64,000 nucleotides of DNA from Coriobacteriaceae bacterium (GCA_025992705.1 DAJPGJ010000001.1:1553270-1617269), one strand, 5' to 3'; shown: positions 27,909-61,578, counted from the first letter of the stretch. Notes: generated by a model from the letters alone, not told the origin. Program-made: numbers and translations.

Positions 27909-27922
27909 GACCACGAAAACGT

Positions 27923-27949
27923 GACAAAAGTGCCCCGGCGACTTTTGTC
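27923..27949 (+). terminator. stem-loop GACAAAAGT[gccccggcg]ACTTTTGTC 15 nt after the stop codon (no U-tract)
   Basis: The stem is a perfect 9 bp. The same element in the same gene-relative orientation lies at 35779..35805. Confidence 0.4.
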
Positions 27950-28328
27950 TGCTGTCAATGGGAGTTATCCACAAATTCTACAATTTTGACCTGCAGAGAG
28001 AATAATTTTATTCACAATTTGAAATAAAAAGGGCCGAATTCTCGCAAAAACGACCTCTCTTTTTCGCGAAATCAAGCGCTTGACCTGCGGATATCAAGTT
28101 TTCCACAAAATTAATTCTTCGAGACAGTAATAATTTCTATCTGTCAACTTATTTTTCAAATTTTTAGTGATACAATCGGTGTGCGGCAAGATTCTAACCA
28201 TGAATGACAAAATGTCAGGAAATGGAAGACTGCTCGACTCCTCCATCTCGCGCTGACAGAGCTTCATTCGATGGTTGTTTTCGAACCCGAAAACGGATGA
28301 GAGTTCTATAAGGAAAGGGGTGAGGAAA

Positions 28329-31617: not shown

Positions 31618-31659
31618 GCGGGACAAATGTGGGACAAGTGGACAGGTCATTTGTCCCGC
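31618..31659. repeat. hairpin GCGGGACAAATG[18 nt]CATTTGTCCCGC, related to one arm of the palindrome at 46165..46239
   Basis: The loop-plus-stem segment TGGGACAAGTGGACAGGTCATTTGTCCC matches 46168..46195 with one mismatch. Confidence 0.7.
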
Positions 31660-31708
31660 TTGCTGCCGGTAACTGCAGCAAATGAGACAACGTCTCTGAG
31701 TAACTGTC

Positions 31709-34700
31709 TCAGCGGGCGGCGTCGACGGCGAGGCGGATGCGGTTCTCGCGGTTGAGCGCCGAGGACTCGGGATCGTAGTCAATGACCGTGATGCGCATGT
31801 TGGCAAAGCGCTCGTGCAGCTCACGCAGGGCCCCGCGGGCGCTCACGTGCCCCTTGAGGCAGCCAAAGCTCAGAAGGTAGATGACGTCGTGGATGCCCTG
31901 CTCGGCGAATGCGGCGAGTTGGTCGAGGTAGCGCACGTCATCGCCCTCGAGAAGCGCGGGGTCGGGCATGACGGGCTCGCATCCGAGCGAATCGAGCACC
32001 TCGACGATGCAATCGTTCATGAAGGGCTCGAACACGATGAGCGGGTTGCCGACGATGCCGATGCGGGGGCGAGGATTCGAGTGAGATTTCTCGACTGCGC
32101 CGCCTTCGGCGGCTTCGCTCGAAATGACAGAGGGAGCCATGCCTTCGGCGGCTCCGCTCGAAATGACAGTGTCCCATGGCACCCAGACGTACTCGGGCGT
32201 GCGACCGCAGGCGCGCTCGACGATACGGGGCACGGCATCGGTCAGGCAGGTCTCGCAGACCTGCGGAAGCTCGACGCGCGTGATACCGGAATCGTCGCGC
32301 AGCATGCGGATGACGCGCGCCGCCATCGCGTTGGCGGTGAAGCACACGTCCTTCACGCAGCTACGCCGCGCGCACTCAAGGTCGTTGGCATCGAGAGGTC
32401 GTTTGGCGAGATCGGCGAGCAGCGAAGCGGATGAGCCGGCCCCGCTGTCATCTCGACCGGAGCGGCCGCCTGGCCGCGCAACGGAGAGATCTCGGGGCGG
32501 AGATTTCTCGACTCCGCTGCCTTCGGCAGCTTCGCTCGAAATGACAGGGGGTGCCGCTTCGTCCGCTTCGGCGGTTCCTCGCATGGCGATGGCCGCGGCA
32601 AGCGTGCGCAGGCGGATGCGGATATGCGCGAGATCGCTGATGTCGTCGACCTTGAGCGTCGTGCACGGCTTGCCCGCCGCGTCGAGCACGTCAGCTGCCT
32701 CCTCGACCGACACCGCCTCGAACCCGCAGCCAAACGACTGCAGAAACACGGCGTCGAGCTGCGGATGGCCGGCGACGAAGCGCGCGATCCCGACGAGCCG
32801 CTTGGCAGGCACCCATGGATACGCGCCATCGAGGTGCGCCTTCGCACGTGATGGGTCGGCCGCCGCGAGACCCGCCACGCCCAGCACCGCAAACCCCAAC
32901 CGGGCGAGCTCGCGGTCAATGCCGTGCAGTAGCGCCTCGTCCATGTGATACGGACGTCCGGCGAGCACGATGCCGTGACGCGACGGATCCTCGGCAAGCC
33001 AGCGCAGGGCACCCTCGGACCGCTCCGCGAGCTCGGCGTTGACCTCCTCCTGGCGCTGCATCGCCATGGAAAACGCCCGGTCGAACTCGCCACGCGTGAT
33101 GGCGGGCACCTCGTCGCCGGCGAGCTCGTTCATGGCGTCGAACAGCCGCTCCATCGAGGCCTCGTCGCGAACGAATCGCGCGGGACGGTAGTTGGCGAGC
33201 TCGGGCGACACGATGGGCGCGAGACCGGCACCGCTTCGGGCCGTCCCGACGTTGGCGGCAAGCGCGCTGGCGTATCCGGTCTGGACCGGGCAATGGTAGT
33301 TGCGCGTGAAGCGCGGCATGAAGACGGCATCGCAGCCGCCCTCGCACAGGCTGAAGTAGCGCACGTGCGACGTCTTGGCCGGATAGCACGCGCTCTCGGA
33401 AGGCACCGTCTCCCACGCCTCGCTCATGCGGTCGGCCTCGCAACCGGGTCGGGGCAGCATGACGCTGAAGCCGAGCTCGACGAGCAACGTGCGCCAGAAG
33501 GGTCGGTACGCGTAGAGCGCCATCGAGTCCATGAGGCCGATGCGCCGCGAACCGCGACTCCCCCGCTGCTCAATGTCGCCAAACGACGCGATCAGGCGCT
33601 GCTCGTCGGCAATGACGTTGGGAGGTGGGACTGGGACAGGGGGAGCCACCTCGTTCGCCTCTCCCCATCGGCGCCGCGGCTCGTCGAGGCCGCGTTCGCA
33701 CTTGTTGTCGCTGACGAAGCAACGCGTCCTCTCGGCATCGAAGCTCACAATCGACAGCTCGCATGCGTTCGCGCAACCCGTGCACGCGACCTTCTCGCGA
33801 CGAATCTCGAGACACCGAAGCTCGTCGAGGCTGATGAGACCGCTTTTCGCCGTCGTATCCGCACCCACCGCGTCGAGCGCGAAAAGCGCGCAGCCAATCG
33901 CTCCCATGAGGTGCGCCTGCGCGGGGCGCACGGCCTCGACGCCGCACAGCAGCTCGAAGGCACGCAGCACGGCGTCCGAGCGGAAGGTTCCGCCCTGGAC
34001 GACCACGCGCTGCCCGGGCTGCGGGATGCGATCGTCACCGATGATGCGATGCAGGGCGTTCTTGACGACGGAGTACGCGACGCCGGCGGCGATGTCCTCG
34101 ATCGGCGCACCGGTTTTCTGCGCGTGCTTGACCCGCGAGTTCATGAAGACCGTACACTTGGTGCCCAGGTCGATGGGATGGCGCGCGAGCAGGGCATCAT
34201 CGGCAAACTGCCACGGCGTCGTCTTGAGCGCGGCGGCCGTGCCCTCGATGAACGCGCCGCATCCGCTCGAGCACGCCTCGTTGAGCGCCGCATCGGTCAC
34301 CATGCCGTGTCGCACCCACAGTGCCTTCATGTCCTGTCCGCCTATGTCGAGCAGGAAGTCGAGGTCATCGCATAGGTGCCGCGCCGAGCGAAGGTGCGCG
34401 GCCGTCTCGACCACCCCCATGTCGACCCCGAATGCGGCGCGCAGCAGCTCCTCGCCGTAACCGGTCGCGCATGCGCGGGCAATCCACGTGCTCGACTTGG
34501 CATGGGGCAGGTACGAAGGCGGCTCGATCTTGCGATACAGCTCGTCGAGCGCCTCGCGCAGCGTCTCGATAAGGTCACCGCGAATGGGCTCGTAGACGCT
34601 GTAGACGATCTGCGCGTCGGCGTTGAGCGCGACGAGCTTGAGGGTCGTCGAACCCGCATCGATGCCGAGGAACAAGGGGCCCGTCGCTTCGTAAATGCCC

Positions 34701-35644
34701 TGACGCTCGAACTCGGCTTGCGCATGCCGCGCGCGAAACGCCGCGAGTTCGTCGGCGTCCTCGAACAGCGGCGGCAGAAATGCGAGGTCGCTCTTGAGCT
34801 CGCCCATGTCGGCGATGCGCCGCTCGAGCTCTGACGTGTTCATGACGACGGGAGCACACCCCAGCGAACGCGTGTCATCCGAGAGCAGCGCTGCGCCCGT
34901 GACGGTGAACAGGTGCGCGTTCTTGGGCTTGACGCCCTCATGCGCCGAAAGCCCGAGCGTCCGACGGAACGCGTGGACGAGATACGGCATGTGCTCGAGC
35001 GGACCGCCCAGGAAGACGACGTTGCCGCGGATGGGGCGCCCGCAGGCCAGCCCCGACAGCGTCTGGCGCACGACGGCGTCGAAAACGCTCGCGGCGATGT
35101 CGGCCTTGCTCGCGCCGGCGTTGAGCAGCGGGCGCACGTCGGTCTGCGCGAACACGGCACAGCGCGAGGCGATCGGATAGCTGCGGCTCGCGCCAAAGGC
35201 CAGCTGGCTCATCTGGCTGCTGCGCATGTCGAGCATGTAGGCGATGGTGTCGATGAATCCGCCGGTTCCACCCGCGCACGTCGCGTTCATGCGCTGCTCG
35301 GGGCGCTCGTCGAGGTAGATGATCTTCGCGTCCTCACCGCCGAGCTCGATGACGACATCGGCGTCTGGCTCGAGGCCGCGCACGGCATGGGTCGTGGCGA
35401 CGACCTCCTGTACGAAGGGAATGCCGAGGACGCGCGCGACCTCGATTGCGGCCGATCCGGTCATGGCGATCGACGCGTCGACGGGGCCGTGGCGCCAGTT
35501 GAAGTCGTGAATTGCCTCGCCCAGCGTGCGCGCGATGTTGGCGCGATGGCGCATGTAGGTGTCGTAGACGACGGCGCCCGACTCATCGAGCACGACGAGC
35601 TTGAGCGTCTTGGAACCGGCGTCGATGCCGATGCGATACGTCAT
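31709..35644 (-). CDS. giant fusion: two BadF/BadG/BcrA/BcrD-type ATPase (activase) domains plus a 2-hydroxyacyl-CoA-dehydratase-related domain
   Basis: There are two copies of the actin-fold start (YRIGIDAGSKTLK; LFLGIDAGSTTLK) and a long C-terminal dehydratase-like region. The start was chosen at MTYRIGID with a GAGG RBS. The ORF is open to 35677. Confidence 0.8.
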   Translation of the reverse strand: MTYRIGIDAGSKTLKLVVLDESGAVVYDTYMRHRANIARTLGEAIHDFNWRHGPVDASIAMTGSAAIEVARVLGIPFVQEVVATTHAVRGLEPDADVVIELGGEDAKIIYLDERPEQRMNATCAGGTGGFIDTIAYMLDMRSSQMSQLAFGASRSYPIASRCAVFAQTDVRPLLNAGASKADIAASVFDAVVRQTLSGLACGRPIRGNVVFLGGPLEHMPYLVHAFRRTLGLSAHEGVKPKNAHLFTVTGAALLSDDTRSLGCAPVVMNTSELERRIADMGELKSDLAFLPPLFEDADELAAFRARHAQAEFERQGIYEATGPLFLGIDAGSTTLKLVALNADAQIVYSVYEPIRGDLIETLREALDELYRKIEPPSYLPHAKSSTWIARACATGYGEELLRAAFGVDMGVVETAAHLRSARHLCDDLDFLLDIGGQDMKALWVRHGMVTDAALNEACSSGCGAFIEGTAAALKTTPWQFADDALLARHPIDLGTKCTVFMNSRVKHAQKTGAPIEDIAAGVAYSVVKNALHRIIGDDRIPQPGQRVVVQGGTFRSDAVLRAFELLCGVEAVRPAQAHLMGAIGCALFALDAVGADTTAKSGLISLDELRCLEIRREKVACTGCANACELSIVSFDAERTRCFVSDNKCERGLDEPRRRWGEANEVAPPVPVPPPNVIADEQRLIASFGDIEQRGSRGSRRIGLMDSMALYAYRPFWRTLLVELGFSVMLPRPGCEADRMSEAWETVPSESACYPAKTSHVRYFSLCEGGCDAVFMPRFTRNYHCPVQTGYASALAANVGTARSGAGLAPIVSPELANYRPARFVRDEASMERLFDAMNELAGDEVPAITRGEFDRAFSMAMQRQEEVNAELAERSEGALRWLAEDPSRHGIVLAGRPYHMDEALLHGIDRELARLGFAVLGVAGLAAADPSRAKAHLDGAYPWVPAKRLVGIARFVAGHPQLDAVFLQSFGCGFEAVSVEEAADVLDAAGKPCTTLKVDDISDLAHIRIRLRTLAAAIAMRGTAEADEAAPPVISSEAAEGSGVEKSPPRDLSVARPGGRSGRDDSGAGSSASLLADLAKRPLDANDLECARRSCVKDVCFTANAMAARVIRMLRDDSGITRVELPQVCETCLTDAVPRIVERACGRTPEYVWVPWDTVISSGAAEGMAPSVISSEAAEGGAVEKSHSNPRPRIGIVGNPLIVFEPFMNDCIVEVLDSLGCEPVMPDPALLEGDDVRYLDQLAAFAEQGIHDVIYLLSFGCLKGHVSARGALRELHERFANMRITVIDYDPESSALNRENRIRLAVDAAR
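32083..32130. repeat. 48-nt palindromic repeat, copy 1 (inside the CDS, in frame)
   Basis: The sequence is GAGATTTCTCGACTGCGCCGCCTTCGGCGGCTTCGCTCGAAATGACAG. On the minus strand it encodes VISSEAAEGGAVEKS. Confidence 0.9.
32141..32169. repeat. half copy of the 48-nt repeat (inside the CDS, in frame)
   Basis: The sequence is GCCTTCGGCGGCTCCGCTCGAAATGACAG. It encodes VISSGAAEG. Confidence 0.85.
32500..32547. repeat. 48-nt palindromic repeat, copy 3 (inside the CDS, in frame)
   Basis: The sequence is GAGATTTCTCGACTCCGCTGCCTTCGGCAGCTTCGCTCGAAATGACAG. It encodes VISSEAAEGSGVEKS. Confidence 0.9.
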
Positions 35645-35666
35645 GGGCGACCTCGGGGCGACGAAT

Positions 35667-35703
35667 GAATGAGACAAATCCAGCCCGGCGGGATTTGTCT
35701 CAT
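35667..35703. repeat. 14-bp-stem hairpin AATGAGACAAATCC[agcccggcg]GGATTTGTCTCATT just upstream of the activase-fusion gene
   Basis: The inverted repeat is perfect. The loop nearly matches that of the 27923 and 35779 hairpins. Confidence 0.8.
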
Positions 35704-35778
35704 TATTATACGAGGCGGGAAATAAGGTGTGAGGGCGAAAATGCAGCCCGATGCCGAGCCGTTGCCTTGGAGCAACCA

Positions 35779-35805
35779 GACAAAAGTCGCCGGGGCACTT
35801 TTGTC
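35779..35805 (-). terminator. stem-loop GACAAAAGT[gccccggcg]ACTTTTGTC abutting the stop codon of the HTH membrane protein gene
   Basis: It is the exact reverse complement of 27923..27949, so it has the same orientation relative to its upstream gene. Confidence 0.4.
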
Positions 35806-36690
35806 TTATTTACGGCGCTTCCTCCACCAATGCGAGAGCGCTCCGCAAAGCCAGCCCACGAGGGGAATCGTCAGGAACACCACCCACGCGGGATGCGGCT
35901 GCCCGCAGACGAACGCCATGTAGCAGAACCAGCAAATCGCGCCGACCACGTAGAGCGTGCAGAAGAACGCCGCGATGTGCTTGGCACCGAAAAGGCCGCC
36001 GAGCGCATAGTAGACGGGAATGGCGGCGATCAGGAACAGACCATAGCCCCATGCGTCGTACACGAGCCCAACTAATATATATGCGATGAGCACCACCAGC
36101 GGAAACGGAAATCGGTTCCACGCGCGCAGAAACAACGACCCCTTCTTGCCCGTGCCCATGTACGCGTTCGCATCGGCCAGGTTGTCGAACTCGCGGTCGT
36201 TGATGTGGACGCCATCCCAGCCCACGTGCACGTGGTCACCCTTCTTGCCATCGACGACGTTCACACCATCGCGCCAGTTGATGTGGACGTAGTCCTTGCC
36301 GTCCTCGACATGGATGCCATCGAAGCCTATATGGGTCGTGCCGTCGCCCTTGCGAGACGTGGCGTCGTCTTCGGCGGCGGCGTCACCATCGGCGTCGTCT
36401 TCGCCAGCACCCGCATCGAAACCGGGCTCACCGACAGCGTCCTCTTCCGCATCCTCTCCGCAAGCCGTATCAGCGTCGTTGCGTTCCACGTCCGTATACA
36501 GCAGATCGTCGAGCGAGACGTCGTAGAGGCGCGCCAGGGATATGAGGTTGTCCGTGTCGGGCGAAGACTCCGAGCACTCCCACTTGGAGACGGCCTGCCG
36601 CGAGACGCCGAGCTTCTCGGCAAGCTCCTCCTGCGTGAGGCCCGCCGCACGACGCCGGTCCGCCAGCCGCTTCGCGATATCTACATCCAT
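35806..36690 (-). CDS. XRE-family HTH protein with an acidic linker, G(F/W)DG(I/V)H repeats and a C-terminal multi-TM domain
   Basis: The HTH is LTQEELAEKLGVSRQAVSKWECSES. Three or four C-terminal TM helices are present. The start MDVDIAKRL has a GGAGAAAGGA RBS. Confidence 0.7.
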   Translation of the reverse strand: MDVDIAKRLADRRRAAGLTQEELAEKLGVSRQAVSKWECSESSPDTDNLISLARLYDVSLDDLLYTDVERNDADTACGEDAEEDAVGEPGFDAGAGEDDADGDAAAEDDATSRKGDGTTHIGFDGIHVEDGKDYVHINWRDGVNVVDGKKGDHVHVGWDGVHINDREFDNLADANAYMGTGKKGSLFLRAWNRFPFPLVVLIAYILVGLVYDAWGYGLFLIAAIPVYYALGGLFGAKHIAAFFCTLYVVGAICWFCYMAFVCGQPHPAWVVFLTIPLVGWLCGALSHWWRKRRK

Positions 36691-36854
36691 GTGCGTCCTT
36701 TCTCCTGCAAGCATGATAAGCCATGTCTGTTGGGGAAGTTACGGGAGAGCAGCTGGTTGCGCCAGCGATTCTAGTTGGAACTTCGCGCAATTATCGGTTG
36801 CGCGCATGCGTCTGAGCGGGGAAATGCGTGCGTGCTACGCGAAGGGCGAGGAGA

Positions 36855-36902
36855 GAGATTTCTCGACTGCGCAGCCTTCGGCTGCTTCGCTCGAAATGAC
36901 AG
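36855..36902. repeat. 48-nt palindromic repeat, copy 4 (intergenic)
   Basis: The sequence is GAGATTTCTCGACTGCGCAGCCTTCGGCTGCTTCGCTCGAAATGACAG. Confidence 0.9.
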
Positions 36903-37002
36903 GAGAGATGTGTGCACATTTGTCACACGACGTTTACAAAAGCCGCGGGGCACCCGTGTTAGAATCACGGCCAATACGCTCGCGATGGAAGGGACGTTCA
37001 TC

Positions 37003-38031
37003 ATGAAGGCACGGCGAATCATCGTCACGACGCTGGTCACGTTGGCCCTGGGTTGCTGTGTGGTCGGCCTCGGCGCTTGCGCATCGGGAGGCACGCCGAG
37101 TAACGGCGCCAACGGCGAAGGCGGAGCCCCCCTCACGGTGGCGGCCATGAAGGGCCCGACGGCCATCGGCATGGCCCATCTCATGCAGGAGCAAGACGCC
37201 TTGGCCGATGACGGCAAGAAACCGGCTTACGAATTCACGGTCGCGGCCACGGCCGATGAGCTCGTCCCACGCGTGGCGACTGGCGAATTCGACATCGCCT
37301 GCGTGCCCGCCAATCTCGCCGCCAGGCTCTACAAGCAGACCAACGGTGACATCCGCGTCATCGGCATCAACACGCTCGGCGTGCTCTACGGCATCTCCTA
37401 CGATGGCGCCGTCCAGAACCTCGACAACCTCGCCGGACGCACGGTCTACCTCACCGGCAAGGGCTCGGTTCCGGGCTATACCGTTGAGTATCTGCTGGAC
37501 AAGTCCGGGCTCTCCGATCGCGTCGCGCTCGAGTACGTCTCCGAGCCTTCCGAGGCGCTCGCCCGTCTCAACGCCGACCACACGACCGTCGCCATCGTGC
37601 CCGAACCCTTCGCGACCGCCTCGCTTGCCAAGGATGCCGATCTTGTCCGCGTACTCGACATGACCGCGCTGTGGGATGAGTCCTCCGCGGGCAAGGAGGA
37701 GCATGGTCGCTTCGTCACGGGCGTTACCGTGGCGAGAAGCGAGCTCATCGACAACGATCCCGAGAGCCTCGCCCGCTTCATGGACGCGTGGGGCGCCTCG
37801 GTGCAAGCGGGACTCGCGAACCCCTCCTCCATCGCCCAGACGCTCGTGGATTTCGGAATATTAGGCAACGCGTCTATCGCTGATGCGGCCGTACCGCGCT
37901 GCAACATCGTCTGCATACTCCACGAGCAGATGAAGGAGGACCTCTCGGGCTACTTGCAGGCGCTCTACGAGGCCGAGCCCTCCTCCATCGGCGGCGAACT
38001 CCCCGACGACGGCTTCTACTACATAGGCTAG
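37003..38031 (+). CDS. ABC-transporter substrate-binding lipoprotein (NMT1/SsuA-like)
   Basis: A lipobox LGAC follows the signal peptide. MKGPTAIGMAHLM and DIACVPANLAARLYKQTNG are present. Confidence 0.7.
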   Translation: MKARRIIVTTLVTLALGCCVVGLGACASGGTPSNGANGEGGAPLTVAAMKGPTAIGMAHLMQEQDALADDGKKPAYEFTVAATADELVPRVATGEFDIACVPANLAARLYKQTNGDIRVIGINTLGVLYGISYDGAVQNLDNLAGRTVYLTGKGSVPGYTVEYLLDKSGLSDRVALEYVSEPSEALARLNADHTTVAIVPEPFATASLAKDADLVRVLDMTALWDESSAGKEEHGRFVTGVTVARSELIDNDPESLARFMDAWGASVQAGLANPSSIAQTLVDFGILGNASIADAAVPRCNIVCILHEQMKEDLSGYLQALYEAEPSSIGGELPDDGFYYIG

Positions 38032-38041
38032 CGGGCTTCCC

Positions 38042-39478
38042 GTGGGCAACGACCACCAGACGCGCAATCGACGCTCCCCCGCCGCCTTCGCGAAGAGGGC
38101 TCTGGCCGTCATCGCCTGGCTCGTCATCTGGCAGCTCATCGCGGCCGCCCTCGGCAATCCCTGGCTGCTCAGCGGCCCGGTCGAGACCGCGCAGACATGG
38201 GGTCAGCTCGTGCTCACCGCGAGCTTCTGGCAGGCGGTCGCCTCCTCGATCGCGCGCATCGCGATTGGCTACGGCATCGCCTTCGTCGCCGGCTGCGTCC
38301 TGGGATACCTGGCCGCGAAGCTCCCCGGCCTGCGCATCTTCCTCAAACCCGCCATCCTCGTCGTCAAGAGCGCACCGGTCGTCTGCGTCATCGCGCTGCT
38401 GCTCGTCGCGGCGGGATCGCACGTGACCACCGCCATCGTGGTCGGACTCGTCGTCTTTCCGCAGTTCTACCATGCGGTCATGGAGGCGTCGCTTTCCCGT
38501 GACAGCGAGGTCGACAAGGTCCTGGACGTCTTTGGCGTACCGGCCATGCGGCGGGCGCTGTGCGTGGAACTCGTCGCCTTCGGCACCTCCGTACGAGCCG
38601 CGACGGCAACGGCCGCAGGTCTGGCCTGGAAGTCCGGCGTGGCTGCCGAGCTCATCGGCCTGCCGGGCATCTCGATTGGCGAGGGCGTGTACCTGGCGAA
38701 GATCTCGTTGGACAGCGCCTCGATCATCGCCTGGACGGCGACGGTCATCGTGCTGAGCTGGCTGTCCGAAAAGCTCCTGGTCAAGCTCGTGGACGCGATC
38801 GTGAAACTGCCGAGACGTTGGCTGACCGCACGGGTGCGCACGGCCATGGCCGCAAAGGGCGCCGATGCGCCGGTGGCCACGGCGCCGACGGGCCTGCGCA
38901 TCGAGGGGCTCGCATGCGTCTACGACACCGAGGGCAGTACTCCCCTGTGTCTGGACTACGAGGACCTGACCATGGCCGCCGGCGCGCGCCTGTGCGTGAT
39001 GGCGCCATCCGGTGCCGGCAAAACCACCCTGCTGTCCATGGTGGCCGGCATCAAGCGACCCAGCGCGGGCGCCATCGCCCATGATGACGGGCAGACACCG
39101 GCCATGGCTACGGTGCTGCAGGACTGCACGCTGCTACCCTGGGCCTCGGCCCTCGAGAACATCGCGCTCGTGGCAAAGGACGTCTCCGAGATACGCCGCG
39201 GCGCGCATCTATGCCGCACGATGCTCGACGAGGAGGCGCTGGCCAAGCCGTCACGCGCGCTTTCGGGCGGCATGCGCCGTCGCGCCGAGCTCGCCCGCGC
39301 CCTGGCCCATCCCAGCTCGCTCGTCATCCTCGACGAGCCCTTCGCCGGACTTGACGAGGCGACGAAGGAACGCTGCACGCGGGTTATCGACGATGAGCTG
39401 GATGGCCGCACCCTCATCATCGCCACGCACGACGAGAAGGACGCACGGGCACTGGGCTGCGACATCGTGAGGCTGTAG
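38042..39478 (+). CDS. fused ABC permease-ATPase
   Basis: An N-terminal 6-TM permease is followed by Walker A APSGAGKTTLL, the signature LSGGMRRR and Walker B LVILDEP. Confidence 0.75.
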   Translation: MGNDHQTRNRRSPAAFAKRALAVIAWLVIWQLIAAALGNPWLLSGPVETAQTWGQLVLTASFWQAVASSIARIAIGYGIAFVAGCVLGYLAAKLPGLRIFLKPAILVVKSAPVVCVIALLLVAAGSHVTTAIVVGLVVFPQFYHAVMEASLSRDSEVDKVLDVFGVPAMRRALCVELVAFGTSVRAATATAAGLAWKSGVAAELIGLPGISIGEGVYLAKISLDSASIIAWTATVIVLSWLSEKLLVKLVDAIVKLPRRWLTARVRTAMAAKGADAPVATAPTGLRIEGLACVYDTEGSTPLCLDYEDLTMAAGARLCVMAPSGAGKTTLLSMVAGIKRPSAGAIAHDDGQTPAMATVLQDCTLLPWASALENIALVAKDVSEIRRGAHLCRTMLDEEALAKPSRALSGGMRRRAELARALAHPSSLVILDEPFAGLDEATKERCTRVIDDELDGRTLIIATHDEKDARALGCDIVRL

Positions 39479-39531
39479 GCGCGAGAGGGCCGTCGCGCCA
39501 GGGATTCAAACCGACGCGCGTAGCCATCAGC

Positions 39532-39753
39532 CCGCAAAACGTGGCGCAACAGGCGATGAATGCCCAAAACTGCGCCCTCGTGGCTGCCCGGTGCCAAGTC
39601 CTGCGGTCACATGACAGCAAAACGCGGCGCAACGCCGGGGCGCGCAGCCACCCAACCGCAAAACGTGGCACGGCAGGTGATAGCTGCCCAAAATTGTGTC
39701 CCCGTGGCCGTCCGGTGCCAAGTCCTGCGGTCACATGACAGCAAAACGCGGCG
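39532..39753. repeat. tandem direct repeat, about 1.8 units of 124 bp, carrying four copies of GCAAAACG(T/C)GGC
   Basis: CCGGTGCCAAGTCCTGCGGTCACATGACAGCAAAACGCGGCG recurs exactly at 39588 and 39712. Confidence 0.85.
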
Positions 39754-39948
39754 AGATGCCAATGAGGTGGTGACTCTGAGTTGCTGCCTCGCTTTTCATC
39801 CTCGGGGCATGATGACCATGCACACTGTTTACGTTAGATTGAGTGCGCGTTGCGTATGTGCCTAATCCCATCTGCATTGTTAACGTAATCGTTACATTCG
39901 TACGCTAGCATTTACGCACTTGTCTATAGCTCCGGGAGGAAGAGCCTT

Positions 39949-41814
39949 ATGACGCTAATGGAAATCGAACGCCCGACGGCAGCGCATGCCGTCATGGAGG
40001 ATGTGTGCGACACGATCGCGCGCAGGGCGCAGTCCGGATCGGTGGGCACCTGCCCCGTCGAGCTCACGGACGCGTTCGTCAGCCTATCCGCCTCGCAATC
40101 TTGCGGCAAGTGCGTCCCCTGCCGCGTGGGACTTGCCCAGATGCGCAACCTCGTGGAGGCCATCCTCGACGGGCGCGCGAACGAGCGCGACATCGACGTG
40201 CTCGAACGCACCGCACGTAGCGCCTACCTGAGTGCCGACTGCGCCATCGGCTACGAGGCCGGTGCCATGGTGCTGCGGGCCGTGAAGGGCTTCCGCGACG
40301 ACTTCGTCTCCCACGCCACGCAGGGTCGTTGCACGGCCGGCGCGCGCAACGCCGTGCCCTGCCGCGCGGCATGCCCCGCGCACGTCGACATTCCCGGCTA
40401 CGTCGCCCTGGTCCACGCGGGCCGCTACGACGACGCCGTGCGCCTCATCCGCAAGGACAACCCATTCCCGCTTGCCTGCGGCCTCATCTGCGAGCATCCC
40501 TGCGAGCTCGCATGCAGACGCGGCGTGGTGGACGACGCCATCAACATCCGCGCCCTCAAGCGCTATGCGGTGGATAACGCGTCCGAAATGTTCGAACTCG
40601 ACTCCGACGGCACACCCGCCGAGCCCTCGAAGCCCTTCCACTACCCCGCCACCGGCAAGCGCGTCGCCGTCATCGGCGGCGGCCCGGCCGGCCTCACCGC
40701 CGCGTACTACCTCGCGCTCATGGGGCACTCCCCCGTCGTGTTCGAGCAGCGCGAGCATCTGGGCGGCATGATGCGCTACGGCATTCCCGCCTATCGCTTC
40801 CCGCGTCCCGAGCTCGAGCGCGAGGTCGACTGGATCGTCTCGCAGGGCATCGAGCTGCACATGGGCACGACCGTTCCCAACGACGTGACCCTGGGCGAGC
40901 TGCGCCGCGACTTCGACGCCGTCTACATCGCCATCGGAGCGCATAACGAGAAGACGCTCGGCATCGAGGGCGAAAACGCCGAGGGCGTGCTCTCGGCCGT
41001 CGAGATGCTGCGTGCCATTGGCGACGGCTTCATGCACGACTTCGCCGGCCAGCGCATCGTCGTCGTGGGTGGCGGCAACGTGGCCATGGACGTGGCCCGC
41101 ACCTCGCTACGCCTGGGCGCCGAGTCCGTCACCGTGGTCTACCGCCGGCGCATCGAGGACATGACGGCGCAGCGCGAGGAGATCGACGGCGCCATCGCCG
41201 AAGGCTGCGAGATCATGGAACTCGCCGCTCCGCTACGCGTCATCGAGAAGGATGGCTGCGTCACGGGCCTCGAGGTCCAGCCCCAGATCATCGGGCAGTT
41301 CGACCGCGGACGCCCCAAGCCCATCAAGGCCGACAAACCGCCCCAGACGATCGAATGCGACCGCGTGCTCATGGCCGTGGGCCAGGCCGTCGGCGCGTCC
41401 GAGCTGGGAAGCGAGGAGCTGCCGGTCGAATGGGGCAAGGTCGTGACCAGTCCGTTCGGCCAGGTCGAGGGCATGGAAGGCGTGTTCTGCGGAGGCGACT
41501 GCGAGAGCGGTCCGGCAACGGTCATCCGCGCCATCGCCGCCGGCAAGGCCGCCGCGCGCAACATCGACGAGTTCCTCGGCTACGACCACGTCATCGAAAC
41601 CGACGTGGAGGTTCCCGACGCCCGTGCCACCGACCGCATGCCCTGCGGCCGCTCCAACACGACCGAGCGAAGCGCCGAGGCACGCCGCCGCGACTTCGCG
41701 ATGATGGAACGCGGCCTCACCGACCAGGAAGCTGCCCAAGAGTCCAACCGCTGCCTGCGCTGCGACAAGTTCGGCCTAGGCGCGTTTCGTGGAGGGAGGG
41801 AGTTCTCATGGTAA
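39949..41814 (+). CDS. NAD(P)H-oxidoreductase subunit: NuoF-type Fe-S domain fused to a glutamate-synthase small-chain (GltD)-like flavoprotein
   Basis: SCGKCVPCRVG is NuoF-like. CPAHVDIPGY, CEHPCELACRRG and the dinucleotide fold VAVIGGGPAGLTAAYYL are present. Confidence 0.8.
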   Translation: MTLMEIERPTAAHAVMEDVCDTIARRAQSGSVGTCPVELTDAFVSLSASQSCGKCVPCRVGLAQMRNLVEAILDGRANERDIDVLERTARSAYLSADCAIGYEAGAMVLRAVKGFRDDFVSHATQGRCTAGARNAVPCRAACPAHVDIPGYVALVHAGRYDDAVRLIRKDNPFPLACGLICEHPCELACRRGVVDDAINIRALKRYAVDNASEMFELDSDGTPAEPSKPFHYPATGKRVAVIGGGPAGLTAAYYLALMGHSPVVFEQREHLGGMMRYGIPAYRFPRPELEREVDWIVSQGIELHMGTTVPNDVTLGELRRDFDAVYIAIGAHNEKTLGIEGENAEGVLSAVEMLRAIGDGFMHDFAGQRIVVVGGGNVAMDVARTSLRLGAESVTVVYRRRIEDMTAQREEIDGAIAEGCEIMELAAPLRVIEKDGCVTGLEVQPQIIGQFDRGRPKPIKADKPPQTIECDRVLMAVGQAVGASELGSEELPVEWGKVVTSPFGQVEGMEGVFCGGDCESGPATVIRAIAAGKAAARNIDEFLGYDHVIETDVEVPDARATDRMPCGRSNTTERSAEARRRDFAMMERGLTDQEAAQESNRCLRCDKFGLGAFRGGREFSW

Positions 41815-43673
41815 ACGTAACGGTCAACGGAACGCCCGTCGCGCTCCCGGAAGGTTCCAAGATCATCGAGGCGGTCTTCGCCTCGGGCAACTACGTGCCC
41901 ACGCTCTGCGGGCTCGAGGGCATAAGCGACATCGGCGCGTGCCGCGTGTGCGTCGTCGAGGTCGAGGGCATCGAGCGCCTCGTGCCCGCCTGCAACACCG
42001 CGCTCGAGGAGGGCATGGTCATCCGCACCGACACCCCGCGCGTGCTCGAGGCACGCCGCGTCAACGTCTCGTTGTTGCTTTCCCAGCATGACGTGCAATG
42101 CGCGACCTGCGTGCGCAACGGCAACTGCGTGCTGCAGGACCTCGCGCAGGACCTCAACATCCTCGACGTCCCCTACGAGAAGGAACCGACCTTCACGCCC
42201 TGGGACAAGAGCTTCCCGCTCATCCGCGACAGCTCGAAGTGCGTGCGCTGCCTGCGCTGCGTGCAGGTGTGCCACAAGGTGCAGGGCTGCGACGTATGGG
42301 ACATCAAGAACCGCGCGACGCGCCTGGACGTGGGCGTGCGCGACGGACTGCCCATCGAGGAGGCCGGTTGCACGCTCTGCGGCCAGTGCATCACCCACTG
42401 CCCCACCGGTGCGCTGCGTGCCCGCGACGACATCGATGCCGTGCTCGAGGCGCTCGCCGACCCGGACGTGGTATGCGCGGTGCAGGTCGCCCCGGCGGTG
42501 CGCACGTCGTGGGGCGAGACGCTCGACCTGCCAGCAGAGCTCGCGACCGAGGGACGCCTGGCGGCCACCTTCCGCGCGCTCGGCTTCGACTACGTCTTCG
42601 ACACGAACTTCGGCGCCGACATGACGATCATGGAGGAGGGCAGCGAGCTGCTCGAGCGCCTGGATGGCCAGGGCACCATGCCCATGTTCACGTCATGCTG
42701 CCCGGGCTGGGTGCGCTACCTCAAGATCAAGCATCCCGACAAGCTCGCCCATCTCTCGAGCGCCAAGTCGCCGCAGCAGATGTTCGGCGCGCTGCTCAAG
42801 GAGTACGTCGGTCCCAAGCTCGGCATGGTGCCGCCCAAGGAGGGCACCCACGTGCTCGAAGGCGTACGCGAGGGTGCGGGCCTGGGCATCGGCGTGGACA
42901 CCAACCCCGTCGGCACCGGCGCCAATGACGACGCATCCGTGGCGGCAGCCGGCGAGACGGGCTTCGCGACGTCGGCGCCGATGGGCACGCGCATCTTCAA
43001 CGTGTCGTGCATGCCGTGCGTGGCCAAGAAGTACGAGGCCGCCGTCGAGGAGATGGTGCGCGAGACCGAACCCGACGTCGACGCGGTGCTCACCGTGCGC
43101 GAGCTCGGCAGGCTCATCCGCCTCATGCACGTCAACATCGCCGCGCTTGACGAGACGTCCTTCGACGACCCGATGAACGAGGGTTCCGGTGCCGCCGTGA
43201 TCTTCGGCGCAACCGGCGGCGTCATGGAAGCCGCGCTGCGCAGCGCCTACTATCTCGTCAACGGAACCAACCCCGACCCCGATGCCTTCACCGAGGTGCG
43301 TGGCCTGGACGGTTGGAAGGAGAAGACCTTCGACCTTGGCGGCAGCGAGGTGCGCATCGCGGTGGCAAGCGGCCTGGCGAATGCCGAGAAGCTCTTGGCG
43401 GCCATCGATGCCGGCGAGGTCGAGTACGACTTCGTCGAGGTCATGGCGTGCCCGGGCGGATGCGCCGGCGGAGGCGGACAGCCCATCCACGAGGCACGCG
43501 AGATGGCAGGCGAGCGCGGCCGGACGCTCTACGCACTGGACCGCACGCGTCCGACGCGCTTTAGCCACGAGAACCCCAACGTGGCCACGTGCTACGAGGA
43601 GTTCCTGGGCGAGCCGCTCTCGCATCTGGCCCACGATCTGCTCCACACCGACCAGGAGCAGTGGACGCTGTAG
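41808..43673 (+). CDS. hydA: [FeFe]-hydrogenase catalytic subunit (group A architecture)
   Basis: An N-terminal 2Fe-2S and F-clusters are present, with H-cluster motifs FTSCCPGW, MPCVAKKYE and EVMACPGGCAGGGGQP. The ATG at 41808 has the RBS GGAGGGAGGGAG. The tracked ORF from 41355 is an over-extension. Confidence 0.85.
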   Translation: MVNVTVNGTPVALPEGSKIIEAVFASGNYVPTLCGLEGISDIGACRVCVVEVEGIERLVPACNTALEEGMVIRTDTPRVLEARRVNVSLLLSQHDVQCATCVRNGNCVLQDLAQDLNILDVPYEKEPTFTPWDKSFPLIRDSSKCVRCLRCVQVCHKVQGCDVWDIKNRATRLDVGVRDGLPIEEAGCTLCGQCITHCPTGALRARDDIDAVLEALADPDVVCAVQVAPAVRTSWGETLDLPAELATEGRLAATFRALGFDYVFDTNFGADMTIMEEGSELLERLDGQGTMPMFTSCCPGWVRYLKIKHPDKLAHLSSAKSPQQMFGALLKEYVGPKLGMVPPKEGTHVLEGVREGAGLGIGVDTNPVGTGANDDASVAAAGETGFATSAPMGTRIFNVSCMPCVAKKYEAAVEEMVRETEPDVDAVLTVRELGRLIRLMHVNIAALDETSFDDPMNEGSGAAVIFGATGGVMEAALRSAYYLVNGTNPDPDAFTEVRGLDGWKEKTFDLGGSEVRIAVASGLANAEKLLAAIDAGEVEYDFVEVMACPGGCAGGGGQPIHEAREMAGERGRTLYALDRTRPTRFSHENPNVATCYEEFLGEPLSHLAHDLLHTDQEQWTL

Positions 43674-43716
43674 AGGCTCGGAGCTCTCAAATTACGATTG
43701 CGCGCGCAAAAACCGC

Positions 43717-43847
43717 GGAAGTCTAGGATGCGAATACGCCACGGACGAGCCGCACGCGCAAAAACCACGGAAGTCTAGGATTTGAGCACGGGAATCCTAG
43801 ACTTCCGTCATATATGCGCTCGGAGCTCCCGCGAATCCTAGACTTTC
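43717..43847. repeat. cluster of four copies (two direct, two inverted) of GGAAGTCTAGGAT, including a 13-bp-stem hairpin at 43769..43806
   Basis: The copies lie at 43717, 43769, 43794 (inverted) and 43835 (inverted, one mismatch). Confidence 0.85.
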
Positions 43848-43904
43848 GCGAAAAGTGCGCATGGCAGGGGCGCGATGACGCGTCGGCGGGTACAATATAC
43901 AGCG

Positions 43905-44060
43905 AATTGGCTTACGGGCCGCCTCCGATAGGCGGTGCCTCGTAGAGGCCTCGGGGAATGCGGGTGCAAATCCCGCGCTATACCAGTAACCGTAAGGCGC
44001 CGCATGCGTGCGGCCGAAGTCGGACTACCGAGCCATGACCGAAAGCCCTGGATGAAAGAG
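43905..44060 (+). ncRNA. cobalamin (B12) riboswitch
   Basis: GGGAAUGCGGGUGCAAAUCCCGCGCU...CCGUAAGG and the B12-box-like GAAGUCGGACUACCGAGCC are present. A TACAAT box sits at 43891. B12-uptake-type genes lie downstream. The boundaries are approximate. Confidence 0.65.
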
Positions 44061-44067
44061 GTCTATC

Positions 44068-44517
44068 ATGAAACGTCTTTTTGCATGCATTGCCGCCTGC
44101 GCGCTCTTCGCCTCGCTGGCACTTGCCGGTTGTGGCTCGAATGCCCCGGCATCGTCGAGCGCGGCGAGCACGCAAGGCTCCTCCGCCGCCGCGGCGGCGA
44201 GCCAACAGGCTGACCAGCCCGGTGAGCTCATCGAGACCAAGGCGACGATTACGGATGCCGACGGAAACACCACGAGCTACACCGTCCAGATACCGGCAGC
44301 CGATGCGACGGCGCTTGCCGTGCTCGAGGCAACCGATGCCGAAGTCGCCACCGAGAACAGCCAGTACGGCACGTACATCACCGCCATCAACGGCATCGCG
44401 GCCGAGGGCAATTCGGGTTGGGTCTACACGGTCAACGGCGAGCAGGTCATGGAAGCCGTCGACGTCTGTCCCGTGGCAGCCGGTGATACCGTGGAGTTCT
44501 CCTTCATCACGATGTAG
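44068..44517 (+). CDS. DUF4430 (transcobalamin-like) lipoprotein
   Basis: A lipobox LAGC is present, and the C-terminus reads YGTYITAINGIAAEGNSGWVYTVNGE. Confidence 0.7.
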   Translation: MKRLFACIAACALFASLALAGCGSNAPASSSAASTQGSSAAAAASQQADQPGELIETKATITDADGNTTSYTVQIPAADATALAVLEATDAEVATENSQYGTYITAINGIAAEGNSGWVYTVNGEQVMEAVDVCPVAAGDTVEFSFITM

Positions 44518-44526: not shown

Positions 44527-45435
44527 ATGCGCCCCGATGCCTTCTCGACACATCATCCTGCGGTGACGCTCACCTTCTTCGTGGGCGTCATCGTGTTGTG
44601 CGTGCTCGTGCAGCAACCCGTCGTGCAAGCGGCGGGCCTCATGGGTGCGGTGCTCTACTACCTGTGTCTGCGCGGGCGCGATGCCTGGCGCCTGCTTGCG
44701 GCGATGGCATTGGCGCTCGTCGTGCTTGCCACGATCAACCCCCTCTTCAACACGCTTGGCGACACCGCGCTCTTCACGTACCTGGGCGCACGCCCCTACA
44801 CGCTCGAGGCGCTCGCCTACGGTGCGTCGACCGCGACCATGTTCGTGAGCGTCATGCTGTGGTTTGCCTGCTATGCGCAGGTGATGAGCACGGACAAGTT
44901 CACGTACCTCTTTGGCCGCCGGGCACCAGCGCTCACGCTCGTGCTGACGATGACGCTACGCCTCGTGCCGAGTTACGGACGCAAGGCCCGACAGATTTCG
45001 ACAGCGCGGCGCTGCGTCGGCCTGTCGATGACGCAGGGCAGCGTACGCGAACGTGCGCGGGATGGGGCTTCGCTGCTCTCGGCGCTCACGAGCTGGGCGC
45101 TCGAGGGTGCCGTGACCACGGCCGACTCGATGCGTTCGCGCGGTTACGGCGCGCGGACTAGCGGCGACTCATCGACTCCGGGGCGCTACCTGCAATGCCG
45201 CTTCCGCATGCGCGATGCGCTGTTGCTCGCCCTCATGGTCGCGTGCGTTATCGTCACCTGCATCGCCCTCGCGAGCGGCGCGCTTGCCGTGAGCTACGTG
45301 CCCGCCATCGACATCCCCACGCTCTCGCCGCTTGGCATCGGCGCGCTCGTGGCGTGTACGGTGCTCGTGCTCGTGCCATCTGCCATCGATGCGAAGGAGG
45401 CGATTGCATGGCGCTCTTCGCTCTCGAACATCTGA
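44527..45435 (+). CDS. ECF transporter transmembrane (T) component, CbiQ/EcfT family
   Basis: The protein is multi-TM, and LTMTLRLVPSYGRKARQISTARRCVG is the coupling-helix region. Confidence 0.8.
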   Translation: MRPDAFSTHHPAVTLTFFVGVIVLCVLVQQPVVQAAGLMGAVLYYLCLRGRDAWRLLAAMALALVVLATINPLFNTLGDTALFTYLGARPYTLEALAYGASTATMFVSVMLWFACYAQVMSTDKFTYLFGRRAPALTLVLTMTLRLVPSYGRKARQISTARRCVGLSMTQGSVRERARDGASLLSALTSWALEGAVTTADSMRSRGYGARTSGDSSTPGRYLQCRFRMRDALLLALMVACVIVTCIALASGALAVSYVPAIDIPTLSPLGIGALVACTVLVLVPSAIDAKEAIAWRSSLSNI

Positions 45436-47132
45436 GCTTCAGCTATCCCGATGCCACGGTGCCCGCACTCGACGAGCTTAGCCTCGAGGTCGAGCGCGGC
45501 GAGTACCTCTGCGTCTGCGGCAAGAGCGGTTGCGGCAAGACGACGTTCCTGCGCCAGCTCAAGAGCGTGCTCGCCCCCTTCGGACAGCGTTCGGGCGCCA
45601 TCTTGCTCGATGGCGTTTCCCTGGACGAGGTGCCGCTTGAGACCCAGGCCCGGCGCATCGGCTTCGTCATGCAGGACCCGGATGCGCAGATCGTGACCGA
45701 CAAGGTATGGCACGAGCTCGCCTTCGGACTGGAAAGCATCGGTTGCCCTTCGCCGGTGCTCCGCCTGCGCGTGGCGGAGATGGCAAGCTACTTCGGCATA
45801 TCCGACTGGTTCGACCGCGACGTCTCCGAGCTCTCCGGCGGGCAGAAGCAACTCCTCAACCTGGCCGGCGTGATGGCCATGCAGCCTGACGTGCTCGTCT
45901 GCGACGAGCCGACAAGCCAGCTCGACCCCATCGCGACGGCGAGCTTCCTCGACACGCTGCGTCGACTCAATCGCGAGCTCGGCGTGACCGTCATCATCAG
46001 CGAACATCGCCTCGAGGATGTCTTCGCGCAGGCCGACCGCGCGCTCGTTCTCGACGAGGGGCGCATGATGGCTTATGGCACGCCGCGCGAAGTGGCGGCC
46101 CGCCTATACGCGACGGACGATGACATGACGCGTGCGTTGCCTTCGCCAGTGCGCGTGTTCTATGGGGTGGGACAAGGGGACAGGTCATTTGTCCCACTGG
46201 AATCCAGTGGGACAAATGACCTGTCCCCTTGTCCCACCCGATGCCCGCTCACGGTACGCGAGGGACGCACGTGGCTTGTCGAACGCGTGCTCGCCAAACC
46301 GCCCGCACGCGTGAACATCCCCGACAGCAACGACGACATGGACGCGCGCAAACCCGTCGTGGAACTCCGCGACCTGTGGTTTCGTTACGAGCGACAGGCA
46401 CCCGACGTACTGCGCGGCCTGGACCTGCGCGTGCCGCAAGCCACGCTCTTCGCGCTCGTGGGCGGCAACGGCAGCGGCAAGTCGACACTGCTCAGGTGCC
46501 TTTGCGGCGTACAGCGTCCCTATCGCGGCAAGATGCGCGTGCTCGGCCACAAGCGAGGGTCGGACAAAGGCACCGGGCGGCTCCGGGAGGGCGTCGCCAT
46601 GCTGCCCCAGGACCCGGCCAACCTCTTCTCGAAGAACAGCGTGCACGAGGAGCTCGCCGAGATGCTCGCAGCTCAGGGGCTTGATGCGAGCGAAAACGCA
46701 CGGCGCTGCGCGGCCATGGCGCACGATTGCGGCATCGAAAGGCTACTCGATGCACACCCCCGCGATCTGTCCGGCGGCGAGCAGCAACGCGTGGCACTCG
46801 CCAAGGTGCTCCTGACCGAGCCGCGTCTGCTCCTGCTCGACGAGCCGACCAAGGGCATCGACGCCTTCTTCAAGCACGAGCTCGCCGTATTGCTGCATCG
46901 CCTAACCGAGCGCGATGTCTCCATCATCATGGTCTCGCACGACATCGAGTTCTGCGCGCGTTATGCGGACTTCGTCGGCCTGCTTTTCGACGGCAGCGTC
47001 GTGACCACGGCAACCCCGCGCCGTCTCTTCTCGGACAGCGGGTTTTACACGACGGCTGCCAATCGCATGAGCCGCAGCGTGTTTGCCGGCGCCATCACGG
47101 ACGAGGACGTGATCGAGCTGTGTCTGAGCTAA
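45408..47132 (+). CDS. duplicated ECF/ABC ATPase (EcfA1-EcfA2 fusion)
   Basis: There are two Walker A motifs (GKSGCGKTT; GGNGSGKST), two signatures (LSGGQKQ; LSGGEQQ) and two Walker B motifs. The RBS is GAAGGAGG. Confidence 0.85.
   Translation: MALFALEHLSFSYPDATVPALDELSLEVERGEYLCVCGKSGCGKTTFLRQLKSVLAPFGQRSGAILLDGVSLDEVPLETQARRIGFVMQDPDAQIVTDKVWHELAFGLESIGCPSPVLRLRVAEMASYFGISDWFDRDVSELSGGQKQLLNLAGVMAMQPDVLVCDEPTSQLDPIATASFLDTLRRLNRELGVTVIISEHRLEDVFAQADRALVLDEGRMMAYGTPREVAARLYATDDDMTRALPSPVRVFYGVGQGDRSFVPLESSGTNDLSPCPTRCPLTVREGRTWLVERVLAKPPARVNIPDSNDDMDARKPVVELRDLWFRYERQAPDVLRGLDLRVPQATLFALVGGNGSGKSTLLRCLCGVQRPYRGKMRVLGHKRGSDKGTGRLREGVAMLPQDPANLFSKNSVHEELAEMLAAQGLDASENARRCAAMAHDCGIERLLDAHPRDLSGGEQQRVALAKVLLTEPRLLLLDEPTKGIDAFFKHELAVLLHRLTERDVSIIMVSHDIEFCARYADFVGLLFDGSVVTTATPRRLFSDSGFYTTAANRMSRSVFAGAITDEDVIELCLS
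46165..46239. repeat. 75-bp perfect palindrome (two 36-bp arms with a 3-nt centre) inside the ATPase linker, in frame
   Basis: The sequence is GGGTGGGACAAGGGGACAGGTCATTTGTCCCACTGG-AAT-CCAGTGGGACAAATGACCTGTCCCCTTGTCCCACCC. It encodes GVGQGDRSFVPLESSGTNDLSPCPT. Confidence 0.95.
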
Positions 47133-48201: not shown

Positions 48202-48235
48202 GCGCTAGAAGCCCATCACGACGATACACATTCGA

Positions 48236-48279: not shown

Positions 48280-48285
48280 GGATTG

Positions 48286-61576: not shown

Positions 61577-61578
61577 GT

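Follow-up and report, generated by a model that had tools for sequence, protein, structure and literature searches.

What is a 48-nucleotide (nt) hairpin repeat doing in frame inside the gene of an enzyme activator, and again between two other genes nearby? The question is raised by a stretch of 64,000 nt from a Coriobacteriaceae bacterium (GCA_025992705.1 DAJPGJ010000001.1:1553270-1617269), hereafter the window, in which an earlier note had drawn attention to these units. We found that they belong to a family of tagged, GA-rich hairpins with a common structure, that they occupy protein linkers where their number is polymorphic among relatives, and that at the level of the family they are associated with genes of small GIY-YIG nucleases. 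The units are probably a GA-rich, longer variant of the CGTC-tagged repetitive extragenic palindromes (REPs) and of the NTS and SRM hairpins, acting as single-stranded DNA with an Ssn-type GIY-YIG nuclease as partner.

The earlier note knew of no described counterpart in this kind of organism. Two published groups of repeats qualify this statement, although the GA-rich family and its host group appear in neither. CGTC-tagged REPs (families CGTC-1 to CGTC-4) lack a dedicated transposase and show a terminal, unpaired tag (CGTC, TGTC or CCTC), stems that open with A-T, a short tail, frequent dimers and intragenic copies, the last read as VIPAKAGI, VIPGLDPGI and VIAGLDPAI (Di Nocera et al. 2013, PMC3733652). 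Neisseria dRS3 and the Rickettsia palindromic elements RPE-4 and RPE-6 of R. conorii were placed among them, and the phyla covered in 2013 did not include Actinomycetota or Bacillota (PMC3733652). NTS (CGTCATTCCCGCGMAVGCGGGAATCYRG) is a longer repeat containing dRS3; NTS and the related SRM hairpins flank genes for 94-amino-acid (aa) single-domain GIY-YIG nucleases, Ssn, which act on single-stranded DNA only and on one strand only (Chenal et al. 2025, Nat Commun 16:2388, PMC11893778). For SsnA, the C after the palindrome weighs most in binding and the three bases preceding it in cleavage, which takes place a few bases upstream (PMC11893778).

Repeat units in the window

The earlier note had placed three full 48-nt units and a half unit here, and its coordinates and sequences proved right. 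Translation of the open reading frames (ORFs) confirmed that two full units and the half unit lie within a 1311-aa activase-fusion gene. That all copies share one orientation did not hold, since a degenerate inverted unit had been missed. The scores below are those of R1, a covariance model built from 84 units of other phyla only, which finds the three full units at E values of 8e-9 to 2.9e-8.

31709..35644, minus strand: host gene, 1311 aa starting MTYRIG, with two BcrAD_BadFG stretches and one DUF2229 domain
32083..32130, minus strand: full 48-nt unit (copy 1) at linker site C, read as VISSEAAEGGAVEKS, aa 1173-1187; R1 53.1 bits, E=2.6e-8
32141..32169, minus strand: 5' half unit, 39 nt upstream of copy 1 in gene direction, within VISSGAAEGMAPS, aa 1160-1172
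32445..32493, plus strand: degenerate inverted unit with compensated outer stem ATCTC/GAGAT, read in the gene as RDLSVARPGGRSGRDD; R1 25.6 bits, E=0.005
32500..32547, minus strand: full 48-nt unit (copy 3) at linker site B, read as VISSEAAEGSGVEKS, aa 1034-1048; R1 55.7 bits, E=8e-9
33617..33667, minus strand: linker site A, WGEANEVAPPVPVPPPN, where a full unit is absent and a remnant resembles the central part of the 'ANEVS' subfamily
36855..36902, minus strand: intergenic full unit (copy 4); R1 52.8 bits, E=2.9e-8

Copy 4 does lie between divergent genes, one for a helix-turn-helix (HTH) regulator (35806-36714, minus) and one for a binding-protein-like product (from ~37003, plus). The minus strand is the tagged strand for four of the five units. 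All four full-length units (the three full ones and the inverted one) have a TGTC tag, and in every unit a C stands directly 3' of the palindrome. The half unit comprises the tag, the ATTTC arm, GAGCG and the left portion of the central stem. A 39-nt core pattern with up to three mismatches matched the window three times (0.00 expected from 100 shuffles), and a 3' half pattern recovered the half copy at 32151-32169 together with an opposite-strand match at 32445-32463 (3 mismatches). The inverted unit, of the ATCTC/GAGAT subfamily, is spaced 6 nt from copy 3. Together they form a tail-to-tail dimer (32445-32547), a palindrome of 103 nt (folding z-score -6.5) whose tags point outward and whose tails point inward, i.e., the geometry of the nuclease cassettes described below without the gene.

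A mini hairpin with tag and tail (TGTCATTC-N7-GAATCT) lies at 28189-28209 on the minus strand. It matched the model weakly (E=0.69) and could be a short relative, or the match could be due to chance.

Structure and covariation of the family

Read on the tagged strand, a family unit (34-48 nt) starts with an unpaired Y-GTC tag, continues with an AT-YYY 5' arm, GA-GC-GA and a variable Watson-Crick stem, mostly with a GNA triloop, and returns through GA-G(T)C-GA and an RRR-AT 3' arm to a C-Y tail. The common reading is Y-GTC, ATTTC, GAGCG, variable centre, GTCGA, GAAAT, C-Y. The outer arm has 5 base pairs (bp) and the central stem 2-6 bp; the 3-nt loop is GAA, GCA, GTA or GGA in 76 of 147 units. 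The opposed conserved 'GA' dinucleotides mismatch in tandem (G.A, in a CGAG context), and a single T bulges out. Because these mismatches become C.T on the complementary strand, it is presumably the tagged strand alone that is structured.

Both stems covary, and the family has a hairpin structure. In the 84-unit alignment, drawn from other organisms, the central pair 17:25 is GC in 52 units, AU in 11, CG in 2 and GU in 2, and the pair 18:24 is CG in 49, UA in 8, GC in 5 and UG in 4. The covariation score of this alignment was reached by none of 500 shuffles, and shifting the 3' partner by 1 to 3 columns lowered pairing from 93% to 19-49%. The outer stems behaved likewise in a second scan of viral sequences, which left three positions of each outer arm free: 114 of 123 distinct matches were fully complementary (chance being 1 in 64), in at least 10 combinations including CCT/AGG, TCT/AGA, TTC/GAA, TCC/GGA, CCC/GGG and CTT/AAG. 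A search with free 5-nt arms gave seven variant outer stems, all beginning with AT.

The earlier note had argued for a hairpin from three different Watson-Crick pairs at one central position. These pairs are real (C:G in copy 1, T:A in copy 3, A:T in copy 4), and further copies brought further covariation: across the 48-nt subfamily, some 20 loci have C:G, A:T or T:A as the N:N pair, the one mismatch being C.A. The predicted stability of a single unit lends the structure no weight, as nearest-neighbour folding gave z-scores of -1.4 to +0.2, not better than shuffled sequence, with a model that credits tandem G.A pairs little. Support for the hairpin therefore comes from covariation.

At the unpaired ends, position -1, in the tag, is T in 78% of the units and C in 20%, and never a purine. 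The base that follows the tail C (next to GAAATC) is T in 82% of cases, with C in 15%. The tail C itself is present in 294 of 294 family units, which the ATC anchor of the search pattern partly forces. The few unanchored tag variants included GCC, GTT and GTA.

Hammerhead, hairpin-ribozyme and k-turn readings were dropped from the sequence, their core motifs being absent.

Distribution and orientation

Looking for the element elsewhere was a test proposed by the earlier note, and the element proved to be common. Public collections were searched with only the two ends fixed, GTCATTTCGAGCG ... GTCGAGAAATC. The scan of bacterial genomes gave at least 120 stretches, from Clostridia, Bacteroidales, Pedobacter, Verrucomicrobia, Planctomycetota, Dehalococcoidia, Patescibacteria, Acidobacteriota, Bifidobacterium and a Coriobacteriia metagenome-assembled genome. 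The viral scans gave 11 stretches with the ends fixed and 108 with the outer arms partly free. Scanning metagenomes for the 48-nt subfamily yielded 29 stretches, of which 7 are the window locus and the remainder fall at 12 or more other places in related gut metagenome contigs; the copies at those places are mostly intergenic. A literature search for the DNA strings of the units returned chance primer matches only.

Some phage contigs are dense with units (10 in 14 kb in L185, 7 in 4.2 kb in L181, and also L163 and L182), mostly in intergenic positions and in both orientations.

The orientation of units was unbiased relative to flanking genes (19 sense and 22 antisense in tandem gene pairs), to local GC skew (63 vs 70) and to the direction of phage genes, which fits an element acting at the DNA level rather than an RNA element. 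This bears on the first alternative, that the units are structured RNA, e.g., an mRNA stabiliser, a processing site or a translation-pausing structure between the activase domains. The direct units in the activase gene do place the structured GA-rich strand on the mRNA, and the internal loops are kept across phyla. We still regard this explanation as very improbable. Besides the lack of orientation bias in both bacteria and phage contigs, the units are not followed by a U-tract, the copies in the CbiQ gene (see below) are antisense, and Rfam gave zero matches at the units, at the gathering score or with E up to 10. Their triloops are of the GNA type, which is typical of stable DNA mini-hairpins. 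REPs have often been proposed to work as RNA (PMC3733652), but SsnA leaves an RNA version of its site unbound (PMC11893778).

Association with GIY-YIG nuclease genes

The family is linked to genes of small GIY-YIG nucleases. When the genes next to units were clustered, a four-locus cluster of ~100-aa ORFs turned out to be such a nuclease, the sole recurrent neighbour that was not generic; the others were two-component systems, a deaminase and phage structural genes. In the forward test, which used a hidden Markov model (HMM) built from candidate ORFs, small GIY-YIG genes (PF01541, E 1e-16 to 1e-18) adjoined units in 7 of the 120 element-anchored bacterial loci among the matches listed, against an estimated ~0.3 loci expected by chance for a single-copy gene. 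In the reciprocal test, all three homologues chosen by protein similarity alone were bracketed by units found with R1. In the locus L269, a plus-strand unit ends 8 nt before the nuclease start codon, and a minus-strand unit overlaps the stop codon and is followed by an array of 5' halves. By alignment, the catalytic residues Y4/Y15/E62 have the same spacing as Y6/Y17/E64 of SsnA. The 108 viral stretches encoded no GIY-YIG gene.

These neighbourhoods also speak to a second alternative, in which the units are REPs, REPINs or MITEs (miniature transposable elements with inverted repeats) moved by a transposase, either a Y1 HUH enzyme of the REP-associated tyrosine transposase (RAYT) or IS200-IS605 type or a DDE enzyme, and the link with GIY-YIG genes is incidental. 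In its favour are the bulged T, the mismatches and the conserved 5' tag of the hairpins, the inverted, REPIN-like dimer and the tag-like TGCC that is already present in the empty target at one site (see below). Yet the only specific neighbour to recur was the GIY-YIG gene, and no recurrent transposase, Y1 or other, was found among 574 ORFs near units. In addition, the GTAG tag is absent, neither regular target-site duplications nor a GC-skew bias were seen, the sole insertion sequence (IS) of the window has unrelated ends, and CGTC-tagged REPs likewise lack a dedicated transposase (PMC3733652). We thus consider movement by a transposase unlikely.

Two candidate sources of movement were rejected individually. 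A phage ORF lying between inverted units in L170 has no known domain and is not a transposase. The IS at 57953-59315, which has perfect 24-bp terminal inverted repeats and encodes a 405-aa HTH and rve (DDE) transposase, has ends that are unrelated to the units.

Copy number, linkers and reading frame

The comparison of orthologues, also proposed by the earlier note, likewise favoured a dispersed hairpin repeat. The best 120 orthologues listed, one of which is named Coriobacteriia bacterium, have 85-99% identity and lengths of 1277 to 1407 aa. The differences in length map to the three linker sites, where the number of units varies among orthologues at 85-95% identity: 1 to 4 units at site A, one to four direct units with or without an inverted unit at site B, and 1 to 3.5 units at site C, with a degenerate inverted unit (ASAHNDG) in one clade. 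In the DNA of seven relatives, the arrays consist of 5' halves (..CCCYC-TGTC-ATTTCGAGCGRAGC..) with a 39-nt (13-codon) period and a terminal complete unit.

Arrays of 5' halves closing in one complete unit recur in unrelated phyla (L269 3360-3518; L135 8560-8720; window 32129-32167). The preferential multiplication of 5' halves is explained by none of the mechanisms that we considered.

The suggestion that the units sit in interdomain linkers held well. The linkers concerned are unconserved and variable in length, and homologues at 30-48% identity have unrelated, length-variable linkers at all three sites; the peptide is therefore not an old conserved linker. All direct copies in the gene share one frame, as had been claimed, and read VISSEAAEG..VEKS or VISSGAAEGMAPS. 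In the codons of the host gene, the 5' N of the central pair is a silent third position, and the 3' N is a first position whose change turns Gly into Ser. A unit can be read through in five of its six frames. Sense copies across the family favour the frame GTC ATT TCG ('VIS..'; 19 of 29, by crude ORF calls), which encodes small and acidic residues; the peptides of the remaining two sense frames are strongly basic. In the Coriobacteriia lineage, unit lengths (45 and 48 nt) are multiples of three. Coding copies in Pfam-supported genes of other phyla occur at a DUF4855/DUF6259 junction, at a LysM/Peripla_BP_6 junction, and within GH77, GcpE and MurB_C. In-gene copies are hence a general property of the repeat family.

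A third alternative would derive the repeats from a low-complexity linker that evolved locally by in-gene duplication, the likeness to intergenic copies being secondary. It accounts for a tandem copy number that varies with a 39-nt period and for lineage units that are multiples of three. But identical units are found between genes, antisense in the CbiQ gene, at the 12 or more other loci and in other phyla; the compensatory change costs a Gly to Ser replacement; distant homologues lack the peptide; and with five frames open, stop codons do not force the frame. As the sole explanation, local linker evolution is refuted, and we find it hardly credible in any form other than as a mechanism of local array expansion.

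Sites outside the activase gene vary as well. Upstream of the HTH gene, the window has 1 unit and the related loci L138, L136 and L135 have 1.5, 3 and 5 (one inverted), respectively, with zero units where the adjoining gene differs. Two other sites lack units in the window:

43861..43867, no strand: empty intergenic site; in L135 a unit and 39 nt follow CCCCTGCC, and the window, L136 and an outgroup have no unit
45154..45178, no strand: CbiQ linker, 23 unrelated nt in the window vs 185 nt in L136 and L138

The 185 nt of the CbiQ gene hold 2.5 units, one of them full, one inverted and one a half, with the antisense reading ..EISRL..LEMT... At the empty site, a tag-like TGCC pre-exists in the target. 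No regular target-site duplication was seen in any comparison of filled and empty sites. The other copies of the lineage, outside the activase and CbiQ genes, are treated here as intergenic because the ORFs enclosing them have almost no Pfam support.

Such comparisons lend something to a fourth alternative, spread without any enzyme by template switching at quasi-palindromes, gene conversion and recombination, with nuclease genes as frequent landing sites. Segments are replaced rather than simply inserted (23 nt vs 185 nt in CbiQ), arrays of 5' halves occur, and the boundaries of a gene block described below coincide with arrays. The explanation is nonetheless quite improbable. From phylum to phylum, the GA loops, the tail and the unpaired tag are kept strictly, which argues for recognition by a conserved protein, and the nuclease gene was bracketed at fixed distances in all three reciprocal tests.

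A block of ~7.9 kb (window ~36900-44100), with genes for a binding protein, an ATP-binding cassette (ABC) ATPase and two Fe-hydrogenase-type proteins, is present in window-type genomes and missing from a sister clade (L132/L137/L139). In L135, hairpin units lie at or near both of its edges and at an internal junction, an arrangement that recalls the repeat-flanked gene cassettes of Neisseria. Where L135 has three clustered hairpin units, the window has a 124-nt tandem repeat (39511-39758; two copies, 81% identical), each copy of which begins with a motif like TGTCATGTGAC.

Relation to published repeats

With NTS and SRM the family shares oriented hairpin repeats of 20-50 nt with HGTC directly 5' and C directly 3' of the palindrome, many copies per genome, and units that bracket a GIY-YIG-only nuclease of ~94-103 aa with equal Y/Y/E spacing. 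The positions critical for SsnA (PMC11893778) correspond to the invariant unpaired positions of the GA-rich family. Where NTS has a contiguous 8-bp stem, the GA-rich units have a 5-bp AT-YYY arm, two tandem G.A blocks, a bulged T and a free central stem with its triloop. The hosts differ too, SRM being found mainly in Pseudomonadati and the present family being heavy in Clostridia, Bacteroidota, the candidate phyla radiation (CPR), Chloroflexota, Actinomycetota and phages.

CGTC-tagged REPs resemble the family in the C/TGTC tag, the AT stem start, the short unpaired tail, the frequent dimers and the lack of a dedicated transposase. Their intragenic copies are read from GTC ATx as 'VI...', in the frame shared with VISSEA. 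They differ in that their stems are contiguous (8-9 bp), their loops have 4-5 nt and their tail is CCA, in place of a composite structure, a 3-nt loop and a C-T/C tail. We class the GA-rich family as a variant, not as a listed member of either group, because the SRM pattern and two structural criteria of CGTC-tagged REPs do not hold for it.

The earlier note had likened the units to the palindromic elements of Rickettsia, and the analogy is closer than it claimed: RPE-4 and RPE-6 are themselves CGTC-tagged REPs, with the same tag and AT stem start (PMC3733652), a likeness that we draw from their published description. Like RPE, the GA-rich units are hairpin repeats read in frame at tolerant positions of unrelated proteins. 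RPE-1 and similar elements are lineage-specific and 100-150 bp long, unlike the present units of 34-48 nt in many phyla. GTAG REPs and REPINs are also short, high-copy hairpins that form inverted doublets and bracket a single-copy gene; here the GTAG tag and the Y1 transposase of the REP/RAYT system are missing and the bracketed gene encodes a GIY-YIG nuclease. The family differs from MITEs in the lack of regular target-site duplications and in the unrelated ends of the window IS.

How the family may work

If the GA-rich units are, as we consider probable, single-stranded DNA targets of Ssn-type nucleases, the nuclease would, by analogy with SsnA of N. meningitidis, bind one DNA strand in its folded hairpin form. 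The C that follows the palindrome would then serve binding, and the GTC before it cleavage a few bases upstream. Cassettes of unit, nuclease gene and unit, and gene-less dimers such as that at 32445-32547, might spread to new sites. Arrays may grow and shrink locally by slippage or unequal exchange, giving the 39-nt period. Copies arriving in genes would last only in tolerant linkers, where the favoured frame yields a peptide rich in Ser, Glu, Ala and Gly. On the same analogy, a cognate nuclease would act on the copies in the Coriobacteriia lineage.

Several observations weigh against this picture. The published SRM sequence, HGTCWYN(0-2)YYVSBRHN(0-5)WNVSBRGN(0-2)RNCYNB, matched none of the 84 alignment members and none of the 4 full-length window units, although it matched both controls, NTS and NTSvar. 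In contrast to NTS and SRM, the lineage itself has no nuclease gene in the DNA sampled: searched with the HMM, all the ORFs of the window and of lineage loci totalling ~450 kb, partly overlapping, included no GIY-YIG ORF. Likewise, a profile search of a protein database returned none named from Coriobacteriia in the top 120 of at least 8000 matches. The GIY-YIG proteins were classed by Pfam and catalytic spacing; Ssn nucleases belong to cd10448. Most sets of units were anchored on GTC and ATC, and the statistics of tag and tail are partly forced by this pattern. Lastly, the insertion in L135 relative to 43861-43867 has two features not predicted by any simple model, namely 39 extra bases and a duplicated short CTGCC.

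What the data do establish is that the GA-rich family is a structurally distinct and very widespread variant, which in the Coriobacteriia lineage colonises protein linkers. A bolder proposal, which we put forward tentatively and think rather doubtful as a whole, is that the GA-rich hairpins are a large uncatalogued branch of Ssn targets with its own recognition architecture (tandem sheared G.A pairs, bulged T and free central stem as recognition features), dominant in gut Bacteroidota, Clostridia, CPR, Chloroflexota, Actinomycetota and the phages of these groups, and that the Coriobacteriia units are live sites of single-stranded DNA cleavage that also build and remodel linkers. If this were true, one selfish DNA system would drive both the control of gene flow and variation in protein length.

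The first site-specific nucleases for single-stranded DNA were described in 2025, and the range of targets that they recognise has practical interest. Thousands of nuclease-hairpin pairs that escape the published motif, and whose site is structurally distinct, become available with the family. The range of tagged hairpin repeats now takes in Gram-positive gut bacteria, candidate phyla and phage contigs, and the family provides a natural example of repeat DNA turned into protein linker, with strain-level length variation in a 1311-aa enzyme activator. Unrecognised units also put annotation at risk, through spurious ORFs and odd low-complexity inserts (VISSEA.., ..LEMT, ..ARND).

Other features of the window

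Two other palindromic repeats occur in the window. Copies of a second family (GTGGGACAAGGGGACAGGTCATTTGTCCCAC) lie at 31629-31670, directly downstream of the gene, and at 46162-46242, where two copies form an inverted pair of 40+40 nt with 98% complementarity. A 38-nt hairpin, GACAAAAGT-GCCCCGGCG-ACTTTTGTC, occurs at 27914-27951 and 35777-35814 in inverted orientation. Both copies are intergenic and one separates the HTH gene from the activase gene. This hairpin could be a terminator or another repeat family.

Two known RNA families were also found. An AdoCbl-II riboswitch (RF01689, 44.3 bits; 43940-44038, plus strand) adjoins DUF4430/CbiQ/ECF-type genes, near the empty site at 43861-43867. 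A DUF3800-XI RNA (RF02975; 21921-21968, minus strand; 61.8 bits vs a gathering score of 37.8) lies just upstream of where an ORF begins and has no relation to the repeat. Finally, GC content is 0.47-0.53 at 16001-20000, 48001-52000 and 60001-64000, compared with 0.56-0.68 elsewhere in the window, and these low-GC segments may have been acquired.

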